Origin: Cystobasidiomycetes sp. EMM_F5 | Lineage: Eukaryota | Assembly (NCBI GenBank): GCA_051047955.1 | Contig: JBPGPT010000036.1 | Coordinates: forward strand, 62,001 to 126,000 | Length of the DNA stretch: 64,000 bases | Direction: 5' to 3' | Shown: piece by piece, positions 26,939 through 54,537 of the stretch | Layout: each line of letters opens with the position of its first letter | Position numbering within the stretch: position 1 is the stretch's first letter | Position numbers and translations under genes: made by a program | Notes under the pieces: generated by a model | The model's input: the letters and a program-made list of their open reading frames with translations, nothing else | What the model was told of the DNA's origin: nothing | The model's database searches: none

Positions 26939-28807
26939 ATGGACTACGCTCACTATGCACGCTCGTTCGTCAACGGAGCTTTTGTGGAGAAGACGGCAAA
27001 GACGTTCAGCATCAGCAATCCAGCTACTGGCGAGAAGGTTGTCGATGTACAAGAAGCTGGTGCAGAAGGTCCGTGAAGGGATGGCCGGATCTGCCGCTGA
27101 CAATCTGGTAGTTGTTGCTCGAGCTGAGACATTCCGCCCACAGAGGTAGACAGTGCCGTAGCTGCCGCAGAGAAAGCTTTTCCTGCATGGGCAAGTCGTC
27201 TCACGATTCTAGCTGCACTTCTGGTCGCTGAACTAGCCGTTTTCGACAGTCCGAGCGACCCCCGCACGAACGAGCCGCACACCTACGCAAGCTCGCCAGC
27301 TTGATGGGTAGGTAGCATACTCACGCCGTTCCCCCAACAGCTGCTGATATGCCTGCATGATGCTAGAGGCCAATACCAAGAGACTTGCCGAGCTCGATTC
27401 GGTATGCATGGGAGTCCCTTTGGCAATGCACGGGAGAGCTGTGGGTATAGCCGCAAGCCACCTCACCCACTCTGCCAGTCTAGCCGAGACCTATTTGGGT
27501 GGTACCGCCTCCACAAGCCGTCCGGGCTTCGTCAACATGTCGTTGAAGGTCCCTTACGGCGTCGTCGCAGGTAATAGGCCGCCTGTCCGGGTCACGAAAC
27601 GTCTAAGCTAACGCAAGAATGCAGGCATTACCCCTTGGAATGTTCCCTGCATCGTGAGCAGAACTAAGATTGCCTTATAGGTCGCTAAAAATTCAGCTAT
27701 TCACTTGTACAGATGTTTACAGCAAAAGCTGGACCTGCTCTAGCTGCTGGTAACGTCATCATCATCAAGACATCCGAAAAGAGCCCTCTGAGCGGTTCAC
27801 TTATTGCCGAGCTGGCTGCCGAAGCAGGTTTCCCTCCCGGCGTTCTGCAGGTCATCACTGGTGGCGGCTTGGCCGGCAAATTGATTGCAGAGCATATGAG
27901 GATTAGAGCGATATCGTGAGTCGTTGAAAAGGGAGATTGTTGCAGTGTATACTGACGAGATGCCATGACCCATACAGCTTCACTGGCTCCACTCGAACTG
28001 GCAGAGCGATTCAGGAGGCTAGTGCTCGCTCAAACTTGAAGACTGTTCAGCTCGAGCTCGGCGGTAAGAGCCCTGCTGTGGTCTGCGAAGACGCCGATAT
28101 AGAGCAAGCCGTCAAAGCTTTGTCATTCTCATTGTGGAACAACAGCGGCCAGATCTGCATGGCTTCGACGCGCGTATATGTCCATGAGAAGATTCGTGAA
28201 GAATTCGTCTCGCAGTACAAGTCTGCTCTGCGAAACATTACAGGCGGCGATCCATCCAGTCCAAAGACCTTCATGGGACCGCTTGCTGACAGTATTCAGC
28301 ACAAAGCCGTGTCAAATTACATCGAGACTGGCCGTAAAGAAGGCAAAGTCCTGTTGGAAAGCAAAGCCAGCGAGAAGGGCTACTATGTCAACCCGATGAT
28401 ATTCTCGGACGTGGCGGACGATGCTACCATCAACAGAGAGGAAATCTTCGGCCCCGTCGTGGTAGTCCATACGTTTGCGGACGACGAAGAAGCCATCCGT
28501 CGGTCGAACAACTCTGAATACGGATTGTTCGCTTCAGTCTTTACGAAGAATGTGGATCGTGCGCTGAAGTTTGCCAAGCGTCTGGAAGCAGGGGTAAGTT
28601 TGGGCGCCTATGGCTCTTGAACAAAGTCAGCTGAACCGGGTTATCTCGCGCACGCAGAATGTTGCCGTCAACTGTAGTTCACCTATGGGAGACTCAAACT
28701 TCGAGTTTGGAGGGGTAAAACAGTCTGGTGTGGGACGCGAAGGTGGAGTGAAAGCACTGGAGCCGTGGCTCGAGACCAAGTCCGTGTACATTGCCGTCAG
28801 CAATTAG
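26939..28807 (+). CDS. NAD-dependent aldehyde dehydrogenase (ALDH1/2-like)
   Basis: SFVNGAFV..NPATGE, GITPWN, KTSEKSP, SFTGSTRTG, LELGGKSP, the catalytic GQICMAS, EEIFGPV and FGGVKQSGVGREGG. Confidence 0.95.
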
Positions 28808-28988: not shown

Positions 28989-31670
28989 ATGAACGATGAT
29001 GACCTGGCGCTGCTCGAGGGTCCTTCAGCGGCTGTCAAGATCCCGAAACTGATAGCCTGTGCTGAATGTCGGAAGCGGAAGGTAGGCGCAAGAAGCGATG
29101 CGACTACTAGCAAGCTTTGACGTCGCAAAGATGCCTACTAATGGAATGTACTGACTTGCTGACCATCAGCGCAAGGTTGGCTTGCATATACATGGCGGCT
29201 ATCGAAACTTGCTGATGTCCGGTCCAGTGCAACAAGCAAAATCCTTGCAGCGAATGCACAAGACGAGGTGTACCGCATCTATGCCAGCCAGACTTTCGGC
29301 GAGCGACGCCCAATTATGCGTCCGTCAATAGGGAACTCGGACGCGTCCGGCAGCGTCTGGCGGGACTGGAGGCCTTCATCGCTGCTCGGTTCCCTGAGTA
29401 CAAGGATAGTGAAGAAGCAGATGGGGAGAATGACGAAGAAATGCTTGCTCTGGATGGCTTGCAGCACCCAAATCCCGACAAACCAGAAACTCCGGGTAGT
29501 GCTCCTACAGCCAGCCCCATAATAGCAATATCGAGACTTCATAGTAATTCGAAAGACAATCCTCCATCAGATCCTGCCAACGATCTCTTTTCCGAGCAGA
29601 GCCTGGCTTTTGCAGAAGTTTTGGCCAGCTTTCAGGTGCGAATGGACCGCGTCTAAATCAGGCTTCGTACATTACTGAATTATCGATGTATGTGTGCAGG
29701 ATTTTGATATATTTCAAGGTGCAAGTACTATCGTCGGGCTTCCTACCCCTAGAAGCGACCGTTTATTTCCGTCTATACGGCAGCCTCATGCCTCAGTCAA
29801 AACTAATCCCTGGTCGCAGCAACTCATCGCACATTTGCTGACCACGCTGCCTCCGCTGAATATGATTAGGAGCATGTCCCAGTTCTTTTTCGATCATGCC
29901 AGCCGGATTGTGCACGGAGTGATGTCGCGCCAATTCTTTGCCGAGATTGGGGAGTTCGAAAGCATGCTGTCAATCGGTCAAGGTGTCGACGTTGATCCTG
30001 CATGGCTGGCTTTACTATTTGTTGTGAATTCAATTGTCTGTCCCCTACGTTGATATGATTGACATTCGACTGCAGGTGATGTCGATGGGCTTGGTCAGCG
30101 AATACGAAGCTCGGGGCAAAATATTTGGAGTCGGGGAACCGAACGAAATACTACATCTGGCAGAAAGGCTTGCAGAATGTTCAAAAGGCTCAATGGCGGC
30201 AGCGCAATGGACAGCTTTGCCGAATTTGCGGATCGTGCAGACCTTGACTGTATCAGCGTGGCTAGCGGGTCACCTCGACCCTTCTGCAAGCACGTTTGAG
30301 TACGAGGGAGATTGGCAAAGGACGCATGTCACGATCGCTTTGGCCCATTGTCGCGCCTTCGGGCTCGATAGACTCGGGACCTCGAAGGAAATAATGCCAA
30401 AACCCGATCCTGCACTCGGATCCAGCATCTCAGGCTTCAGGAGACAGATGGCGCTCCGTATCTGGCAGGATTACAAGTACTTGGAAAATCTCTCCGGTTG
30501 CTACTTAGTGGATCGAAAAGCGGCAGACACAGCGAGGCCAGCTCTTTGTAGGGACGAAGATCTCGCGTGGTCGCTTGACATTGAGGAGAGATCTTTCTTG
30601 CAAGAGCCCTTTTTGGTATACAAAGCGTTAAACTTTGACGTCGGAGACAACGTGTATGCATCACACGAGTTGAGAAAGCGGCAGCGATGCACTTTCGCAG
30701 AGGCCGAGCACCTTGCTAGGCAGCTGGAACATATTTCGCAAGCTCGAATCCAAGATATACAAAATCTGCCGCATTTAGTGGCGCCCGAAAATCTTGGTAG
30801 CACAGCTGGTACGGAGGTTTACAGAGAAATTGGCCTTGTCTAATCGCTTTTGTTCATATCAAGCTTTCTGCGATTTCGTGCGGATGAATCAGTTCGGCGG
30901 CACGCTTCGAATCTATCGCGCTGCGTTGTAGTAAGTCTGCCGCGACGAAACACAACCTTGTGCGTCAGCTGATGCAGCTGAGCAGCCGGTGTCGGGATGT
31001 ACCGAACGACGCAAGAAAATGCGAATCCGAAGCCAAGAAAGCCGCTGTAGACACCGTAGCGTGTCTGACCTCTGCGCATGGACCTCATATTTCCCGTGTC
31101 ATGCCTTTGGCGGTATCCTTTCTGCTGAATGCATGTGTCTTGTTGCTGACCGGTATGTTCATCATCATCATGTCGATGACAAACACTCACGTCTGTTCAG
31201 CTCTTCGCCGGGAAAAGGACCCCTCGACAATCCGAATGTGGCTAGAACTGCTCAAAAGTGCTCATAACCTCTTCGGAGATGTGGCCAGCACGTCGCGTAG
31301 TCGGCCTATTGTTGCAAAATCGCGCAAGGCTGCGCAAGTAGTTGCAAATTTTGCACAGCGGCTGTTCGTGCTGGAAGCCGTCGCTGGCGGTTCCTTGAGC
31401 GCGTATCAAACAGACCTGCTTGTGCTGACCCAGGAACAGCAGCAGGATATCTCGCCTGGCGGGACTAGCAGGCCAAGCTTGGGTGCGGATCCGAGTCTGT
31501 TTCCAACAGCGCCATCATCGCCTCTGCTGCCGCAAGCTTTACTGGATCAGCTCATAACGCATCAAGCGGATGGACCTGTCCTTTTCGATGACTTCGATCC
31601 GTTCACTATGAACGGCGATCCGAATTTCGGTACCTACATCGACTACGGGCTTGACTTCAGCACATTTTGA
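28989..31670 (+). CDS. Zn2Cys6 binuclear cluster transcription factor
   Basis: Spliced CAECRKRK|RK|CNKQNPCSECTRRGVPHLC. Followed by a coiled coil (LGRVRQRLAGLE), a middle-homology-like region (DPAWLALLF; CRAFGLDRLG) and an acidic C-terminus. Confidence 0.9.
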
Positions 31671-33328: not shown

Positions 33329-33583
33329 GACCCCGATAATTTGTTGGCGACGTCGGGTCTTTCTTTCTCCTGCCGAAATATCAGAGCTCGCAGGTTTGGA
33401 CGATGTCCGGGCTCGACTATCGCGTAGCCTGCTATTGAATGAGCGTGTCCGAGGCAATGGCGCAGGCTGGCAGTCAGGTTTATGGATTGGTCAAGGTCAA
33501 GCAGGAAGGAGGTGGGCAACGGAGTCGAAATATACCAAGCTGTCGAAGACTTCACTGCAAGATTGACTGACACCGACTAACGT

Positions 33584-35338
33584 CTACACTGCAAATGCCG
33601 GAAACTTTCCATTGTGGCCGTGAAATGCAATGGCTCTTAGGTCGGTAAACTGCAAAACCCACAAGCCCGTCAGAAATGACCTTTCTATCGCGGCCTGGAT
33701 CGAGAGGACCCACCGAGTCGACATTGAATCTGTTGTACCCCGAAGCCCCGCCTAAGCCCGCATTGCCAAAGGTTGGCTCAACGTGAATCGTTGCTCCGTT
33801 GACCTGAACAGATCCTGCCTTGATTTGCGGAGCAAACTTCATTGCTTCATGCAGATTGGACGTCCAAAGACTGGCAATGAGGGAGTATTCAGAATCGTTG
33901 GCTAGTCGGATAGCCTCTTCCATGGTGTCGAATGGGGTGAGCGCTATGACTGGGCCAAAAGTCTCGCGAGGCCAGATAGACATCGATGTGGTCACATCGC
34001 CAAGTACCATAGGCTGAATGACCGTTTTGTAGTCGCCTTCCGGGGCTCCAGATGCAGCTCCGGTCAGAACTTTCGCTCCATCCTTGACTGCATCTGCAAT
34101 CTGCTTGGCGACGTTGGATGCTGCCTGTTGGGTGAACAGAGGTCCCTGGAAAGAGATGTGAGCACATATTGATGGGAGACTACAATGACACTCACGAGAG
34201 CAGCCGTGGCGCTTGGATCTCCAGCCTGAAGTTTTGAGACTCGGTCCGCAACAAGCTTGGAGAACCGCTCGTAGACCTCTCTTTGTACAAGGACACGTTC
34301 AGCTGACATACAAATCTGTAGAAACACTGTTAGCAGAGTGTCACGCCTGCTTCCAGGTGAAAGCTTACCTGCCCGCTGTGCATCATGGCAGAAAATACGC
34401 ATCCCCAAGCTGCAGCCTCGAGATTGTCTTCTGCCTGCTTCGAAATGATGTACGGAGCTTTCCCGCCAAGCTCCAGAACGCATTGCTTGAGATTGCGCCC
34501 ACATTCTGATGCAATGATTCGTCCCACTACATCTGATCCGGTGAAAGTGACGCGAGCCACTTCTCGCCTTCCGATAATATGCTTTGCGAGCTCTGGCGCG
34601 TCTTTTCGACTGAACGTCAGGAAGGCTATCGCTTCCTTTGGTAATCCTGCTTCGAGTAGAAGATCGACAATGAGACGTTGGCTTGCAGGTGAATATTCGG
34701 AGGCTTTCAGAATGACTGTATTGCCGCAGATTAAGGGGATAGCAATGCCGCGTAAGGCGAGATTTGGCGGACTGTTCCAGGGGGCCATCGAGAAAACGAC
34801 CTGTCACGAGTGTCAGCCTTGCCGACGCATTTCAGGAAGGTTGCGGTACTCACTCCGGCTGCCCTTCTCTGAACAATGTACATATCCACATCCGGCTTTT
34901 CGCTGCGATGTACTTCGCCTTTGATTGCGGAAGCTTGACTTGCTGCCTCACGTAAAAGATTGGCGCTGGCAATAATGTTCACATGTATCCATCCAGGAGC
35001 TGCCGCCGTTTCCGACGACATGCAGTTTCGTATCCGATCCGCGTACCGCTTCTCGGTCACAAGGTCTGCAGCTCTGAGGAATATTGCTCGCTTTGCGCTC
35101 GCAGGGACTTTCTCCCATTGTGGTTGAAATGCCGCCAGTCCGTCGACGGCATCGTTACAGTCCTGCAAGCTGGCAGAGGGGCACGTCCAAACGGTCTTGC
35201 CAGTCAATCTGGGTGGATCATCAGCACGTAGTACAGCTTTTATCGTTTTCGAGCTGCTCACGGGTTGACCACGTCAAAACGGCTGCTTCCTTCGAGTCTA
35301 TCGGCACCGGCCACGAACAAGGACGGGGTCGCGGACAT
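33584..35338 (-). CDS. Aromatic aldehyde dehydrogenase, vanillin/salicylaldehyde dehydrogenase type
   Basis: APWNSPPNLALRGIAIPLICGNTVILKASEYSP, FTGSDVVGRIIA, LELGGKAP, GQ|ICMSAER, ETFGPV, ANDSEY and VNGATIH. These match the VDH/SaliADH subfamily pattern. Confidence 0.88.
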
Positions 35339-35446: not shown

Positions 35447-35512
35447 CGGCATCAGATATCCGAAAACTGGAAATGGGCCGGCTGAGTGTGCCTGGCGGCC
35501 TTTGGGAGTCCG
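35447..35512. promoter_or_regulatory. CGG-N10-CCG (35447-62) and CGG-N11-CCG (35496-512) putative Zn2Cys6 sites in the VDH/LSD divergent promoter
   Basis: CGGCATCAGATATCCG and (GG)CGGCCTTTGGGAGTCCG(CC). Confidence 0.5.
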
Positions 35513-35723: not shown

Positions 35724-37984
35724 ATGTCCAAGTTCTCCTCCCCCTTCGTAGATGTGCATCCCACCCTCCGAGAGCCAGCTTTCCTGGGTTTCGACGCTCC
35801 TGCCAGATTCGAAGCAGAGGTGTGGGACTGCTTTGTGGGTGACAGTCAACAAGTCTCGAATTGCTTTACACTGAAAGACACTGATGCTTATGCCAGATCG
35901 AGGGACATGTCCCAAAACAAATCGACGGTACATTCTATAGAGTCGCTCCCGACATGCAGGTCATTGCAAAGTACCCCGGCGAGTGAGTCAGGCGATACGC
36001 TCGAATGTATTACGGGGGCTGACGCTACCTCAGAGTAAACTTCAACGGTGGGTTCGGTTCTGAGGGCCTACCCCGCCGAAGGCTAACATTTCTCTCAAGG
36101 GGATGGCATGATCTCGGCTTTCAGGTTTCGCGATGGTCATGTAGATTTCAAAAGTAAGTTTGATGCCCCATGCACTTGTTATGCTATCGCATGCGACTGA
36201 AACTCCTTATCGTCGTTAGACAAATTTGTCCGGACGGAGAAGCTGGTCAGGGAACGAGCAGCACGAAGAGCTTTGATTGGCAAGTACCGCAATGGCTACA
36301 CGGACGACCCTCTCATAGCGGGAGCTGTGCGCACCACCTCAAATACCAACATTGTGCATATGTTTGGCAAATTGGTCAGTTGATAAGAGCAATTTCTGGG
36401 GGGAGTTCAGTTGTTGACAATCGCTTAATAATCAGCTCGCGCTCAAGGAGGACGCGCTCCCGTATGAATTAGACCCACACAGTCTCCGGACCATTGGAAT
36501 CACCAACATCAATGGCGAATACACGGCACCTACCTTCACAGCGGTACGTCTGTACCTTCGTTACTAGAGATTAGAAGAAGCCACTTGTTCATGTGTATCA
36601 CGGATCTGTTCACAGCACCCCAAGCAAGATCCAAAGAACGGCGAGTGGGTCATCTATGGTTACGAAATCGAGGGCGACGGCTCGCGAGGTGTTCGCTACT
36701 CGCTCTTCTCGGAGGATGGCAAGAAGCTAGAGGAGTGTGATTTTGAAGCGCCGTATTGTGGTGTCATGCACGATATCGGCATCACAGACAACTACATCAT
36801 TTTCCAGATATATCCTCTCGAATGTGATGTGGAAAGGGTAAAGAGGGGTGGTAATCATTGGGTTTATAACGAGAAGTTGCCGATGTACCTATGTCGTAAG
36901 TTATGCCATATCTTGGGCATGAAGAGAGGCGGCTGAAGACTGCGCCTGACAGTTTTGCCCCGTCGAGGAGCAAAGTCGAGCGACGCCAAGTGGTTCCACT
37001 GGGACCCTGACCACTTTGAGGGGCACTTCAGCAACGCCTTCGAGAAGGATGGCAAGGTGTATGCCGATTTTCCCGTGATTAAAGGCAATGTGATGAGCTG
37101 GTTTCCCGACAAGAATGGCTATGCCCCCCCCAGGCCAGCGCTCAAGACATTCTTTGCCAGATTTGAGCTAGATCCAAATGCGACAGACCTAAGGATGCCG
37201 AGCCCGACCAAGTTGTGTGATATTTCGGGAGAGTTCTCGAGGATAGACGACCGCTTCGTAGGCCAAGATTACACGTGGACCTACATTGCGGCCATCAACA
37301 TGCAGTTCCCGTACGATCGCGAAAAGAGCGGAGGTCGTCCATTCCCTGGCTTTAATTGCATTGGTCGGATGAATAACAAAACCGGCCATGTAGATTATTG
37401 GTCGCCTGGTCCGTGCGCTTCTGTGGGAGAACCTTCCTTTATTCCGCGATCAGCAGATGCGCCTGAAGGGGATGGATTCGTCATATGCCGTGCGTGACAG
37501 TCTGTGATTCCGCCGCCAAAGGCATATCGACTGAAGCCAACTCCACAGTAATCAACCGTCACGACACTCAATTGTCTGATCTGGTTGTATTGGATGCAGT
37601 GACTTGGGAGCAAGTCGGGATGGTAAAGCTGCCGTTGCGAGTAAGGCCAGGTTTGCACGGCAACTTCGTTCTGAGAAACAGTATGCTGGATCCCGATGCG
37701 CCATTGGCAGATTACGAGTGGGTGCCGGCCAAGGTAAGTCATCTATGCACTATAAGCTTGCACCGGAGACTGACGCAGTATGCGACTGAAACAAGTTTGA
37801 TGGCCATGTTGACAATGCCATTACTGGTGCCAAGATCCCTTACCGTGGAGGCAGGACACCAATGTCGGGCTTCTGCAACGACGGAGGCATCAACGGGCAT
37901 GCAGCACCTCCTAGGGAAGGCGCGAATGGACACGTCAACGGGAGTGAAAAGGCGGTGAATGAGGCTTTGAAGCATGATATCTGA
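35724..37984 (+). CDS. Lignostilbene alpha,beta-dioxygenase / stilbene-cleaving carotenoid oxygenase family (LsdA/CAO-1-like)
   Basis: GFDAPARFEAE, DGTFYRVAPD, FNGDG, GKYRNGYTDDP and LALKED. All four Fe-binding His are present (TFTAHPK, MHD, EGHFSNAFE, GLHGNF), plus EFSRIDDR and GEPSFIPRS..EGDG. The last acceptor is ambiguous (alternative stop at 37958). Confidence 0.9.
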
Positions 37985-38659: not shown

Positions 38660-39733
38660 CTAATGACCGTTTGTCTGCTTCTTTTGAAGCGCGCTGATGA
38701 CTTCCAGCACCGAAACTGCCCGCATGTCCTGAGTCGACGGTCTTTGCTCGCCAGTGACGGGGTGAGCATAGTGGAATGGCACAGTGTGCGCGTCAGCTGA
38801 TAGAACACGCGTGTCAGCCAATTGCGATTCGTGCACAACGCCGCTGCATAGAGAGCCTCACGCCACAGAAATTTCTCCTCCTCGGATTGTAGCTCATCGG
38901 GGCCGGCTGGATCCTGTGGGTACAGAGTTGCAGGGAAGGGCACGTAGTTGCGAGGAACATTCGACCATCCCTCGGAGTAATCGCCGTGCCAGATAGGGTG
39001 GTAGTCTAGAACCTTGATCTTCCAAGGCTCGTTGACCGAATTTCTCGCAAACTCATTCTCGTAGATTCTTTAACGGCCAAAGTCAGATTAACTACACGAA
39101 CAAGCATCATGCTCCTGCTCACCCTCCTTCCCACCACTGCCCTGTCGTAGTCGCGTCTATTTAGCCTGCTGCAACTGTCAGTAAGCAAACACACTCACTA
39201 GGCACTGTTGGCGCATTGGCTGGATCGAAAGGATGGTCGCGGTGTCGTCCGGCTTGCATCAAACTGCGGGCCCTCATTTTCGCCGACAGACGATCCGGCG
39301 CGACGTGAATGATGTCCTGAAGTTGCGGATGATCCAGGAGGAAGCTGTACAAGGGGCATCAGCATTGCTCACAGAGCGAGGTAGCGCCTCAGACTGACCC
39401 GTGAACAGGCCCATTGCGGCCAGCAGTGAACCGTGACTGGAATCTGTCTACATAGAGTCGCTTGACGCCTGCCTTGGTCTTCCACTTGGCGCCATGGAAA
39501 ATGACCATACCGTCGTCCGTGAAGAGATCTACCACCTCGTTGTAGTGGCACTTGTCGATGTAGAAGCCATAAGCGTGTTGCAGGTTGCGAATCTCTGCCG
39601 TATCTGTGTGATTGAGTCGCTCAGCCTGGATTTGTCAATCAAAGTAGAAAGTACACGAACCCTCCAGGACGCCAATGCGATGTGCTTGGTCTTGGATGAG
39701 CTTCTTGAGCTCGGCAATCTCTGATGAAGACAT
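38660..39733 (-). CDS. SnoaL/NTF2-fold protein, LdpA (diarylpropane gamma-formaldehyde lyase)-like; 6 exons, ~260 aa
   Basis: Manual splice gives MSSSEIAELKKLIQDQAHRIGVLE|DTAEIRNLQHAYGFYIDKCHYNEVVDLFTDDG..AGVKRLY..GRNGPVHG|FLLDHPQLQDIIHVAPDRLSAKMRARSLMQAGRH..R|QWWEGG|IYENEF..WKIKVLDY..WHGDYSEGW..YPQDPAGPD..LW|PDAHTVPFHYAHPVTG. All five introns are GT-AG. Confidence 0.8.
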
Positions 39734-39867: not shown

Positions 39868-40048
39868 CGGTCTTGGATATCCGCCCGGCTTCGGCAGGCT
39901 GGGGGAATGCCCGCTTTTGTGCGAATCCGTATTGTAAGCTCATATCCGAGAGCGGGTCCGCAGGTGCATACTTTTAGCGCGTGCAGTGACAGCACTCCAC
40001 TCCTCCGCTCCTCCACATCCGAGTCTTCAAGCGGACGTTCAAAGTCCG
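39868..40048. promoter_or_regulatory. CGG-N10-CCG (39868-83) and CGG-N11-CCG (40032-48) putative Zn2Cys6 sites in the LdpA-like/ADH divergent promoter
   Basis: CGGTCTTGGATATCCG and CGGACGTTCAAAGTCCG. Confidence 0.5.
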
Positions 40049-40278
40049 ACTGGGGCGCAATCCTGGGGCCGCAATGTCCAGTCACGTGCGTACTTTGCTC
40101 GGAACCGCCAGCATGAGTAGACCTAGACATGCTTCAAGATGAGTGCACGTCTGGTGGAGACCACTAGCCCATCTAGACGCTCTCGTGATGAACGGTTCTG
40201 CATCAGGTGAGCATGAACTGGGTGCGAAGCTTGCGCACACTGGAAGGCTAATGGAGCGGAGTCGGGACAGATGTCAGC

Positions 40279-41490
40279 ATGAAGACCACTGTAATGGCAC
40301 TGGAAGAAGCCAAAGGGCACTTCGCTGAGCACCAAGTCTACCTAAACCCACTTGAGGACGAAGAGGTCATCGTAGATATTGTCGCTTCGGGCATCTGCCA
40401 TTCAGACTTCCACATTCTAGACGGCCAGACGCCTGCGCAATTTCCTGTGACGTTGGGGCACGAAGGCGCTGGCGTTGTCCGCAAGGTGGGATCGCGTGTC
40501 AAGCTAGTCAAGGTGCGAAGTACAGTCTGAACATGCAAAGTGGAGTGACTCATCAGAATTTCTCAGCCTGGTGACAAGGTAGTGTTGTGCTACACTCACT
40601 GCCAGACATGCCGCCACTGTCTTGAGGGCGAACACAGCTTGTGTGATGATTGGTTCAAGTGGAATCTGCTTGGAAACCGAACCAACGGCAAGAAGACATG
40701 GTCGGAGCATGAGGGAGCAGGAAAACAGTATGGTAACTTCATCAGTCAAGGGAGCTTCTCTCGTGCGTTGATCATACATGAGACTGGAGCGGTCAAAGTC
40801 AGCGATGATGCCGATCTCGAAACCCTCGCGGGTGGTGAGCAGATTGACCACGACTCTAAAATGCCAGCACTGATTTGCGCCTCATCAGGCATTGGCTGTG
40901 GTCTCTTGACAGGAGCTGGAACTGTCTTTAATGGCTTCCGAGGACACCGGGTGGGATCCTCAATCGCCGTATTTGGGGTCGGAGCAGTCGGAGCAGGTGC
41001 AATCATGGCTGCCAGGAACGGCGCATACAGCAAGATCATCGCTGTGGATTTGCACGAGAACCGACTCGAAGTTGCGAAGAAGTTGGGCGCAACGCACATT
41101 ATCAGTGGTCGTTCCAGCGACGTCGCCGACCAGATCCAGAATCTCGGAGGCGTCGACTACGCCGTCGAGGCTACGGGTGTTCCAGCTGTCTTGCAGACTG
41201 CCTATGACAGTCTACGAAGTGGTGGCAAAGCAGCTGTTGTAGGCATCGCACCTTTCGACAAGACCCTGGCGTTGCCGATATCAAGACACATGAGCACTGG
41301 CAAATCCATTCAGGGTTACGCCTTAGGAGCATCGTTTCCTCGAACCTTCATACCCTTCCTCAGTGATCTATACAAGCAAGGGCGATTTCCGTTCGACATG
41401 CTCACCAAAAAGTATCCGATGGCCGACATTGACAAGGCTATCACGGCCATGAAGGACGGCAGCGTGATCAAACCGATTCTGGTGTGGTAA
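40279..41490 (+). CDS. Zn-dependent medium-chain alcohol dehydrogenase, benzyl/aryl-alcohol dehydrogenase type
   Basis: GICHSD, LGHEGAGVV, structural Zn site CQTCRHCLEGEHSLC, GCGLLTGAGTV, FGVGAVG and LYKQGRFPFD. Confidence 0.9.
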
Positions 41491-52125: not shown

Positions 52126-54537
52126 TCAAATCCGCTGCGTTGGCAGCATTCCGTGTTCAACCGTACTCTCTTCGGCTTTCTCGAAGGCAGGCGTGCTAAT
52201 AGGCCCCATTGCTGCCTCTTGGTCTCCGATATACTTGTTTGCAGAGTCGATGTAGGGCCGATCGACCTTTGGTGTCACTAGATTGTGCGATTATCGTGGC
52301 GTCAGCCATTTATAAATTTCAAAATTCCGGTTGCTGTCAGCTACTCACTCTTATCTTTGACGCTCTCCAGACATGCGCAGGTCACTGCAGCAAGGGCTAT
52401 TGGGCCCAGTATGCTATACCAAGCGTATGAGAAGGCATAAGCTTGAGATTCGTAGTACGCCGGAATCACGGCTTGTGCAACCTGAGGAGTCAAGCCGGGA
52501 ACGTTGACAATTAACGCTGGGCTGATCTCAATGAGTCCAAATAAAATTGGGAGCGACGAGGGCGGAAGCCCGGCCTGAAGTGCGGCGGGTCCAACTAATT
52601 CGGGTAACTTCGACGCTAGCTTGCTCGTCCGAATCGTCGAAACAACAGCCGTGCCCACAGTGCCTCCAAAGGCTCTTCCACTAGCTACCAGCGCAGTTAC
52701 TGTTGCAATCAATTCAGGAGGGGCCGATAATTGAACGACCTTGAGAGGATTTCATCAGTAAACAACCACCAGCGTACTGATACTTGTAGTTACCATGTTC
52801 AAGAGTATCAAGGGTGCACAGAAACCGACTCCGGCTACCGCTAGAGCTCCCATGAGGAGTGCGTCGCCACCTGTGCCAGGTTTGCACTGCGAAAGCATGG
52901 CGGCGGCAACGAGGAACAGCGTGAATCCGATAACAAGTGGAGTCCTGGGATCCTTGTACCTCGCGACGTACCAAGAAATTGGGAATGCGCACAAAAATGT
53001 GGCGGCGGTAAAGATGAAAGATCGGGCACCGATTTTAATCGGATCTGATGCATATCCTAGGCCAAGAATTTCTTGCGGGACGTATGCTGCGACGTTCTGG
53101 AGCAAAGAGTCACGTCAGCCTGCAGCCTGCTGAAAAAGGCTATTACTGACTGTGAAGTAGACCCATCCCTCTGACGATGCATAGTCAGTCAGTACTTGAT
53201 GGATCTCAAATTCAGTCTTAGCCCTTTCTTACCCACGGCCAGAGCTATCGAAATGCGATTGTCAGAAATTGGTCGTCGCGCGCTGCTGGGGAGCTCACCG
53301 AAAGTAGCAACTGCAAAGTTGCGACCGAGGCCAAAGATTCGATGGTCGACAATACCGTCTGACCTGCCTTTCCACTCCCATATGCCGAAGGCGACCAAGG
53401 AAGCCAAGCCAATCAACAGCGGAGCCAGAACGGTAGCGCTGCTCCATGCATACTTCTCACCACCCCAATTGAGGGCCAACAGGGTCAGGGCGAGGGCTAT
53501 CACAATGAGCAGCGATCCAACGACGTCAAGGTCGTGCAACAGCTGGCTCATCGTCCGCTTGCGATAATCAGGTGGAGTCGGTGGGCTGAACGCAAAGGAC
53601 TCAGCCTCACCAAGCCTGCTGCTGACTCAAACGCGATGTCCACTCACTTATAGACAAAGACGATACCAAGAAACGTGAGGCCATAGGACGCTGCGAGGAG
53701 CCAATAGACGATTCTCCAACCATTAACAGCGTCCCCTTGCACCATCCCACCGGTCCCAAGCGATCCAATGACCGTGGCAGCATTGGCCGCGTACAGAACG
53801 GTTGCTTGTGCATAAGAGCGTTTGCTATGCGGAAGCACCTCTGATGGAATCGATCTGCGAATAAAACTGCTAAGACTCCACTCTGTTTCGAAAGGCTCGC
53901 ATTCGGCTTACGAGGTCACGCCGACACATGAGATTGCAATCCCAATGAGGACTTGACCAGCAATGACCATCTGCATACTCGTCGCCTTGCCACCGACAAT
54001 CGCGCCAGCTACGCCAAAGAGACAGCACACGGCGATAATGTGCTTCTTCTTGCCGGTCAAATCGGATAGACGAGCCAAGACGGGACTGCAAATGCCAATA
54101 GTATAATTATTATTATGAAACCCGCAAGAGATGGATAGCCGTACGCCAATGCAGCTTGACACAGGGTAGGGCCGGAAATGAGCCATACAGCATCTTGGGG
54201 ATCACCCAGAGATTGTATTATGAAGGCAATGACGCCTGCAGCTCCGGTGATGGACAGAAGAGAGCTGAAAGTGTGAAGTGAAGCGCATAGGATAGCGACC
54301 CAGCCTAGGCGATGGATGGAGAGAAAGATCAGAGAGATCAGTAATATCAGCTGTTGTGCGATGATGCACGGACGCACTTTTCCAAGACACCTCGGGTTCA
54401 GCATATTTGGACCCGCTTGTTCTGAGAGACATTGCGTGAGGGTGCGTTCACGCCAAATTTGCCTACGCGTTCAGAACTTACAAGATTCTCTGAGGATTAT
54501 GTCCACCTTCGTCGTATTCGACTGGTTGTGAAGCCAT
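52126..54537 (-). CDS. MFS transporter, 14-TM Tri12/DHA2-like
   Basis: ARLSDLTGKK, SEVLP, GWRIVYW, LDVVGSLL..LNWGGEKYAWSSATVLAPL, GRAFGGTVGTAV and YAFSYAW. Confidence 0.88.

Follow-up and report, generated by a model that had tools for sequence, protein, structure and literature searches.

We examined a 64,000-nucleotide (nt) stretch of contig JBPGPT010000036.1 of the basidiomycete yeast Cystobasidiomycetes sp. EMM_F5 (assembly GCA_051047955.1, positions 62,001 to 126,000 of the forward strand; hereinafter the window), which holds on its reverse strand a gene broken into six exons whose product belongs to the LdpA/PcfL family of NTF2-fold proteins and is probably a formaldehyde lyase. The gene and its exons, in window coordinates, are:

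38660..39733, minus strand: the whole candidate lyase gene; six-exon coding sequence of 786 nt including the stop, 261 amino acids, SnoaL_4/NTF2, LdpA/PcfL family
39733-39661, minus strand: exon 1, 73 nt; Met1 to Glu24 plus 1 nt; N-terminal helix
39603-39399, minus strand: exon 2, 205 nt; Tyr36, Asp41, Tyr75, Arg82
39344-39199, minus strand: exon 3, 146 nt; FLLDHPQ, with the predicted catalytic His98 (codon 39331-39329)
39141-39123, minus strand: exon 4, a microexon of 19 nt; (R)QWWEGG, with the predicted catalytic Glu146 (codon 39130-39128)
39067-38862, minus strand: exon 5, 206 nt; IYENE, Tyr150, Tyr170, His175 (Gln in LdpA), Asn188 (His in LdpA)
38796-38660, minus strand: exon 6, 137 nt including the stop; C-terminal arm PDAHTVPFHYAHPVTGE and tail

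Enumeration of GT/GC...AG junctions within 8 nt on either side of every exon block gave a single combination whose product is letter-identical to a public 261-residue protein (P0001; 'hypothetical protein EMMF5_005542 [Cystobasidiomycetes sp. EMM_F5]'), the gene model being already present in NCBI without an assigned function. All five introns (57, 54, 57, 55, and 65 nt) run from GT to AG, an in-frame stop lies immediately upstream of the ATG, and the frame has neither a frameshift nor an internal stop. An earlier CAG acceptor for intron 1, which would add AERLNHT, was ruled out, as it leaves a 35-nt intron and a frame that runs into a stop. We accepted the splice model because the predicted protein is collinear with intron-free bacterial homologs and with the full-length relatives P0002 and P0003; the sequence comparison accordingly confirms a real six-exon gene at these coordinates. 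It agrees with a preceding sequence-only reading of the window, which had placed here a six-exon gene for a protein of about 260 residues visible only as fragments among the open reading frames (ORFs): the stop-to-stop ORFs are indeed fragmentary, with SnoaL_4 detectable in just one of the four exon-ORF pieces, and the motifs which that reading listed are all present (YGFYID, EVVDLF, GPVHGFLLDHPQLQDIIHVAPD, QWWEGGIYENE, WKIKVLDYHPIWHGDYSEGW, and AGPD). The microexon (39123-39141, minus strand), lying between introns of 57 and 55 nt, is an observation in its own right: it carries the predicted catalytic Glu, which is consequently beyond the recovery of ORF-based scans, and the locus offers a clean case of such concealment.

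In Pfam searches with the four exon-ORF pieces, exon 2 matched SnoaL_4 (E 1e-10) and the other three matched nothing. Against the LdpA chains of the PDB, exons 2, 3, and 5 each gave matches far beyond chance (E 7.7e-16, 2.5e-6, and 7e-9, respectively); exons 2 and 5 matched nothing else in the PDB at E values of up to 10, and the one further match of exon 3 (7vwk, E 1.3) is not significant. The whole protein aligned to 8ABV with 186.5 bits over residues 7-233, and its PDB matches at E <= 0.01 comprised three distinct sequences, all of them LdpA (8ABV, 6.6e-54; 8ABT, 4.2e-53; 8ABU, 4.7e-52); 8ABT, 8ABU, and 8ABV (8ABW) are NaLdpA, its H97Q mutant, and SpLdpA (PMC9942872). An AlphaFold2 model, for which a 41-sequence alignment was the input, reached a mean predicted local distance difference test score of 91.2 and a predicted TM-score of 0.87. 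In Foldseek searches with this model, LdpA chains took ranks 1-7 (E 2.7e-25 to 8.2e-24; query TM-score, TMq, 0.72-0.79; 233-257 columns), and from rank 8 followed a scytalone dehydratase-like protein, BaiE, and LinA (E >= 3.9e-8, TMq <= 0.50), which match the NTF2 core only. The exon 6 region aligns to the C-terminal arm of LdpA and the arm sequence is conserved; in LdpA, a homotrimer, the arm mediates trimer contacts (PMC9942872). The window protein hence combines the SnoaL_4/NTF2-like core with the extended C-terminal arm and is homologous to LdpA along its full length.

Two observations concern the wider family. Many relatives of 450-1000 residues show two to four matched stretches, mostly three, that is, tandem SnoaL-like domains (P0010-P0014, P0133, P0136-P0138, and others; e.g., a Modestobacter protein of ~650 residues with PF12680+PF13577), and since LdpA is a homotrimer, these chains could be covalently fused pseudo-trimers. 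Many bacterial SnoaL_4 homologs are named 'carotenoid cleavage dioxygenase' by the Joint Genome Institute though they have PF13577 only (P0006, P0027, P0038, P0042, P0050, P0065, and others); this looks like a propagated misannotation, perhaps originating from the lignostilbene dioxygenase (LSD) genes that are their usual neighbors.

The LdpA study names ten active-site positions in SpLdpA (NaLdpA numbers are higher by 4): a His93-Asp36 dyad; a Glu139-Tyr161-Gln166 triad, called 'exclusive' to LdpA, that binds the C-alpha hydroxyl; Tyr31, Tyr70, and Tyr143; and Arg77 and His179 (PMC9942872). By mutagenesis the His, Asp, and Glu are essential, and SpLdpA His179 (NaLdpA His183) binds the beta-guaiacyl phenol (PMC9942872). 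We compared the window protein at these ten positions, using two Novosphingobium LdpA orthologs as the reference; the LdpA ortholog L069 aligns to 8ABT without gaps over 238 residues (444 bits). Eight positions are kept, namely SpLdpA Tyr31, Asp36, Tyr70, Arg77, His93, Glu139, Tyr143, and Tyr161, which in the window protein are Tyr36, Asp41, Tyr75, Arg82, His98, Glu146, Tyr150, and Tyr170. The motif I His98/Asp41 dyad, the Glu acid, the oxyanion-hole pair Tyr36/Tyr150, and the stacking Tyr170 are accordingly all in place; Glu146 and Tyr170 are invariant across the 41 aligned sequences, and Tyr36 and Tyr150 occur in at least 90% of them. The two differences are Gln166 to His175 and His179 to Asn188, so that the motif II triad reads Glu146-Tyr170-His175 in place of Glu-Tyr-Gln, and the beta-ring His of LdpA is Asn. 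The change from Gln to His is common to all 11 Sphingomonadales sequences syntenic with pcfL and to 28 of the 30 non-LdpA rows; from these comparisons we derived, independently of the literature, a PcfL-type signature of His at SpLdpA position 166 and Glu at 179.

PcfL (Saro_0796) of Novosphingobium aromaticivorans is a phenylcoumaran gamma-formaldehyde lyase: it turns DC-C, a beta-5 phenylcoumaran, into a stilbene and formaldehyde, and acts likewise on DC-A and DC-L (PMC11323797); described in 2024, it is the sole characterized family member other than LdpA (2023). Its published locus comprises ligO/ligN (Saro_0793/0794), pcfL (0796), ferD (0797), ligW (0799), and lsdD (0802), and the stilbene is then handled by LsdD (Saro_0802), the aldehyde dehydrogenase (ALDH) FerD (Saro_0797), and LigW (Saro_0799) (PMC11323797; PMC12997858). 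In our material the Novosphingobium loci L046 and L005 have the order SDR(-SDR)-MFS-SnoaL_4-ALDH-Amidohydro_2-MFS (SDR, short-chain dehydrogenase/reductase; MFS, major facilitator superfamily), with RPE65 in the flank of L046 as well; this is the order of the published pcfL locus, and we therefore named their clade PcfL-type. The 65 genome loci and the named rows of our third homology search are from organisms other than N. aromaticivorans; N. arvoryzae is among the genomes analyzed in the mBio supplement.

The window protein is 42-44% identical to the two LdpA orthologs and 48-54% to Sphingomonadales PcfL-type sequences. In a maximum-likelihood tree of 44 rows (LG+C20), it falls with two Phenoliferia sequences in a yeast clade of 7 rows (98/96), whose sister group, at 87/83, is the PcfL-syntenic clade (10 rows, 100/100), with LdpA in another clade. 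Using groups named after the tree had been seen, the approximately unbiased (AU) test rejects a clade of the yeast sequences with LdpA (delta log-likelihood 30.0, p 0.002). Of the 30 alignment columns at which LdpA and PcfL-type sequences are each fixed for a different residue, the window protein has the PcfL state in 20, the LdpA state in 8, and another in 2. By these comparisons it is not orthologous to LdpA, and its placement points to a PcfL-like, non-LdpA branch. Among the 280 proteins that we collected, DKC.Y occurs in 152, LLDHPQ in 131, MQAGRH in 99, and QWWEGG in 144, and all four are missing from the LdpA orthologs.

The sequence-only reading fares well on these points, with one correction. 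It had proposed an NTF2/SnoaL protein resembling LdpA, and LdpA chains, rather than scytalone dehydratase, LinA, or BaiE, are the best structural matches and the only solved relatives at the sequence level. The His of LLDH, which it equated with the LdpA His, aligns to NaLdpA His97, and the several Tyr residues that it likened to those of LdpA include the conserved oxyanion-hole and ring-binding tyrosines. From DKCHY, DHPQ, MQAGRH, and QWWEGG it had suspected a sister subfamily, and these motifs turn out to be widespread in homologs yet not in LdpA orthologs; this subfamily now has a characterized bacterial member in PcfL, which that reading did not name. Its match to LdpA consequently stands for the family and the catalytic residues, and gives way on orthology (AU p 0.002), the protein being PcfL-like.

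A representative homology search returned 965 matches at E <= 1e-3 and 92 at E <= 1e-30, among which bacteria predominate overwhelmingly. Fungal members are patchy and fall among Pucciniomycotina yeasts and in a separate ascomycete clade (Cadophora, Leptodontidium, and Apiospora). The monophyly of all fungal sequences (7 basidiomycete-clade and 4 ascomycete-clade rows) is unsupported in the tree and not rejected by the AU test (p 0.095), and one transfer is hence indistinguishable from two; one or two ancient bacterium-to-fungus transfers would be the likeliest history. The lyase gene most likely came into fungi from bacteria long ago and has gained its five introns since. With a GC content of 0.55, and of 0.64 at third codon positions, its coding sequence resembles the neighboring exons (0.50-0.54 and 0.52-0.61) and shows no compositional sign of recent transfer. 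We exclude contamination because eukaryotic genes surround the gene, which has five introns and the composition of its host. A metagenome scan yielded 80 loci in which every match was uninterrupted and bacterial-type, with no intron-bearing fungal contig among them. The ascomycete homologs P0007, P0008, P0009, and P0134, which stand apart from the yeast clade, have the same His-for-Gln change as the window protein. A partial protein labeled 'Metschnikowia pulcherrima' (P0335), from a 929-bp contig, is 72% identical to the PcfL-type protein of Novosphingobium; it probably stems from bacteria contaminating a yeast assembly, and cautions against transfer claims based on names.

Three genes of apparently catabolic function lie around the lyase gene:

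33555..35273 (approximate), minus strand: ALDH gene, divergent from the oxygenase gene; Pfam Aldedh on four ORF pieces
35724..37958 (approximate), plus strand: gene for an RPE65-family stilbene-cleaving oxygenase, LSD/CAO1-like, with several introns, convergent with the lyase gene; RPE65 on three ORF pieces
40252..41487, plus strand: zinc alcohol dehydrogenase (ADH) gene, divergent from the lyase gene; ADH_N and ADH_zinc_N

The best PDB matches of the oxygenase are PbLSD (5V2D, 138 bits), CAO1 (118), LsdA (91), and NOV1 (86), and its Tyr in GKYRN and Lys in LALKED align to CAO1 Tyr133 and Lys164, which bind the 4-hydroxyl of the stilbene; the PbLSD paper mentions Lys135 and Tyr103. The sequence-only reading had placed an LSD beside the lyase gene, and the neighbor is such a stilbene-cleaving oxygenase. 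The ALDH best matches two salicylaldehyde dehydrogenases (NahF, 1.3e-35, and another, 1.3e-34) and a vanillin dehydrogenase (9.2e-33), and the ADH best matches 5tnx (1e-53) and benzyl alcohol dehydrogenase (1f8f, 1.2e-49). The rest of the window is an ordinary fungal chromosome, with genes for a hybrid histidine kinase, Vps35, RPL21e, Pex14, an ERGIC/ERV protein, Ctf8, a DEAD helicase, and PLC. A cytochrome P450 gene (46796-48989, plus strand) and a gene for an MFS/TRI12-type transporter (52344-53626, minus strand) lie 5-13 kb downstream of the cluster, with unrelated genes between. Our ORF scan of the window covered 140 ORFs of at least 75 residues in 26-50 kb and 103 of at least 105 residues elsewhere; none of those scanned matched adh_short, the domain of an ldpB-type SDR.

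In bacteria the same kinds of genes accompany the lyase. Among 37 metagenome loci of at least 9 kb, RPE65, ALDH, and Amidohydro_2 each occur in 23, and among 55 Sphingomonadales loci of at least 9 kb, ALDH occurs in 53, Amidohydro_2 in 52, and RPE65 in 7 within the 6-kb flank. The oxygenase, ALDH, and ADH pieces of the window, however, reach only 32-40% identity with their counterparts in the bacterial clusters, which rules out co-transfer of the whole cluster from bacteria. The lyase-oxygenase-ALDH adjacency was therefore assembled independently, and an adjacency that has arisen in this way supports a functional link. At L069:2117-3181 and L070:2257-3171 (both plus strand), each of the two LdpA orthologs is flanked by a divergent ORF that looks short-chain dehydrogenase-like by eye; SYK-6 is listed with ldpA next to ldpB, an arrangement to which this would correspond (PMC12997858).

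The two divergent promoters of the cluster each contain one copy of a candidate regulatory site:

35447..35462, plus strand: CGG-N10-CCG CGGCATCAGATATCCG in the ALDH/oxygenase divergent promoter; tentative shared regulatory site, pattern post hoc
39868..39883, plus strand: CGG-N10-CCG CGGTCTTGGATATCCG in the lyase/ADH divergent promoter; tentative shared regulatory site, pattern post hoc

The pattern CGGNNNNNGATATCCG, itself derived post hoc from both sites, has exactly these two copies in the 64 kb, one per promoter, and allowing one mismatch adds no further site in the window. CGG-N10-CCG is of the inverted-triplet type bound by Zn2Cys6 transcription factors. The k-mers common to the two promoters are otherwise not above shuffled sequences (12 shared 8-mers observed; mean 7 and maximum 19 in shuffles), and this pair alone, a post hoc pick, tentatively stands out. 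At ~29050-31670 (plus strand), between a second ALDH gene (27348-28617, plus strand) and the ERGIC gene, lies a Zn2Cys6 transcription-factor-like gene with a CAECRKRK exon, an intron, a C..CNKQNPCSECTRRGVPHLC exon, and then long ORFs with no Pfam match; it may be a regulator of the cluster.

From the family, the residues, and the neighbors, we infer that the gene product is probably a cytosolic C-gamma-formaldehyde lyase with an NTF2 fold and no cofactor, from the PcfL-like branch of the LdpA/PcfL family, which would feed a stilbene to the adjacent oxygenase. For its substrate we lean, by a little, towards a beta-5 phenylcoumaran, be it a dehydrodiconiferyl-type lignin dimer or a plant neolignan, as for PcfL; a beta-1 diarylpropane seems unlikely, and what probability remains falls to another lignan-like compound. 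By analogy with LdpA (PMC9942872), Tyr36 and Tyr150 would hold the 4-hydroxyphenyl ring and stabilize its phenolate; Glu146, together with Tyr170 and His175, would protonate the leaving group at C-alpha to give a quinone methide; and the His98-Asp41 dyad would then take the proton off the C-gamma hydroxyl. A phenylcoumaran differs in that its leaving group is the phenoxide of the ring, not a hydroxyl, and in that its beta-ring lacks a free phenol; these differences would fit the loss of both the Gln and the His179 of LdpA. Downstream, the LSD/CAO1-type oxygenase would split the stilbene into two aromatic aldehydes, the vanillin/salicylaldehyde-type ALDH would oxidize these aldehydes, and the benzyl-alcohol-type ADH could handle alcohol side chains.

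Several points weigh against this reading. At SpLdpA position 179, the window protein has Asn, as opposed to Glu in 10 and Val in 1 of the 11 PcfL-type Sphingomonadales, and the part given to His175 in catalysis is presumed. Its highest identity (53-59%) is to another bacterial group, which includes Steroidobacteraceae metagenome-assembled genome proteins and has no characterized member. The placement of the yeast clade as sister to the PcfL-type clade has moderate support only (87/83), the groups in the AU test were named with the tree already in view, and the label PcfL-type derives from synteny in two loci and context counts, not from the sequence of Saro_0796. Further, a LigW-type Amidohydro_2 is absent from the scanned window ORFs, though short exons could escape such a scan.

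The nearest rival, and the headline of the sequence-only reading, is that the protein is a functional equivalent of LdpA, a beta-1 diarylpropane lyase that acts on erythro-1,2-diguaiacylpropane-1,3-diol (erythro-DGPD) and supplies lignostilbene to the adjacent oxygenase. That LdpA is the only solved relative, and that eight of the ten named residues match, including the Arg at SpLdpA Arg77, agrees with this, and the neighboring oxygenase and ALDH would serve a route from lignostilbene via vanillin to vanillate equally well; nor do the texts consulted report a DGPD test of PcfL-type enzymes (PMC11323797; PMC12997858). We nevertheless hold it doubtful: the triad called exclusive to LdpA has become Glu-Tyr-His, Asn replaces the His that in LdpA contacts the phenol of the beta-ring, the AU test rejects a grouping with the LdpA orthologs (p 0.002), the PcfL-type state prevails at 20 of the 30 diagnostic columns, and the scanned ORFs gave no adh_short match that would mark an ldpB-type SDR.

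A PcfL-like lyase must also be set against an NTF2-fold enzyme with some other chemistry, such as that of a dehydratase, an isomerase, or a hydrolase-like protein, which acts on a fungal or plant metabolite in a coincidental neighborhood. NTF2/SnoaL proteins are functionally diverse, the bacterial group nearest by identity (53-59%) has no characterized member, and the neighbors are not co-transferred partners; against this, the complete formaldehyde-lyase catalytic set is conserved, the remaining NTF2 enzymes match a core of ~150 residues only (TMq <= 0.50), and the lyase-RPE65-ALDH association, which recurs in 23 of 37 long loci of bacteria, has been put together anew here from unrelated paralogs, all of which makes such an enzyme quite improbable. 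The unusual 19-nt exon might prompt the suspicion of a pseudogene, or of an annotation artefact around that microexon. Just one set of junctions, however, gives an open frame, with introns all GT-AG and no frameshifts or internal stops, and this frame is collinear residue by residue with the bacterial homologs and P0002/P0003, including RQWWEGG with its invariant Glu, so that we give a decaying or mis-modeled gene next to no weight.

The kind of enzyme is known, and it is the eukaryotic, fungal member that is new: the literature searched held neither a fungal LdpA or PcfL homolog nor a fungal lyase-oxygenase-dehydrogenase cluster. According to a 2026 review, specific fungal pathways for model aromatic dimers 'have not yet been reported', and bacteria are suggested to be the main degraders of oligomers (PMC12997858). 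The predicted activities of the four adjacent genes make up a full route from dimer through stilbene and aldehydes to acids, and offer a cheap and concrete test of that view. A broader picture, which we advance tentatively and at somewhat less than even confidence, is of a leaf-surface basidiomycete yeast whose intracellular route for lignin-type dimers or plant neolignans is bacterial in style and self-assembled, running from the aryl-alcohol dehydrogenase through the PcfL-like lyase of bacterial origin and the stilbene oxygenase to the aromatic aldehyde dehydrogenase, and perhaps co-regulated through the CGG-N10-CCG sites. A dimer-catabolic pathway of this kind would be a first for eukaryotes, and the lyase-LSD pairing would have arisen independently in fungi and bacteria. 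An active enzyme would bring eukaryotes into the formaldehyde-lyase family, provide a natural Gln-to-His and His-to-Asn active-site variant for work on specificity, and make plant neolignans, beside lignin fragments, plausible as natural substrates. Soluble dihydrobenzofuran neolignans occur in Magnolia and other plants and may be a natural substrate. The source organism itself is a cultivable yeast that has been reported from the Magnolia grandiflora phyllosphere (PMC12697161).

Among known systems, the other NTF2-fold enzymes are the most remote. The scytalone dehydratase-like 3EF8, BaiE (4LEH, 4L8P), and LinA (3A76, 3S5C) have the cone-shaped alpha+beta NTF2 core in common with the window protein, and such enzymes likewise possess a His-Asp acid-base dyad (PMC9942872); however, they align over ~150-177 columns at 13-16% identity (E >= 3.9e-8, TMq 0.46-0.50), and have neither the C-terminal arm nor the Glu/Tyr set. 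LdpA is far closer: the window protein matches its fold, extended C-terminal arm included (TMq 0.72-0.79), and keeps its His-Asp dyad, Glu acid, Tyr31/Tyr143 oxyanion hole, Tyr70, and Tyr161, and its product would presumably, like that of LdpA, be a stilbene passed to an LSD. It differs from LdpA in being non-orthologous (AU p 0.002) at 42-44% identity, in having His for the motif II Gln and Asn for the beta-ring His, and in that no ldpB-type SDR was found beside its gene among the scanned ORFs. From the PcfL system it differs as a eukaryotic gene with five introns, 48-54% identical to the PcfL-type clade (Saro_0796 itself lying outside this comparison), with Asn where the PcfL-type proteins have Glu in 10 of 11, and Val in one, at the LdpA His179 position; its partners are unrelated paralogs (32-40% identity), and it has no adjacent LigW-type decarboxylase, MFS transporter, or SDR. 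The likeness to PcfL lies in a common NTF2/SnoaL_4 family, in a yeast clade that branches as sister (87/83) to the clade with the pcfL locus order, in the His for the LdpA Gln166 and the 20 of 30 diagnostic columns that the PcfL-type proteins have as well, and in a lignostilbene-type dioxygenase and an ALDH encoded nearby in both systems.

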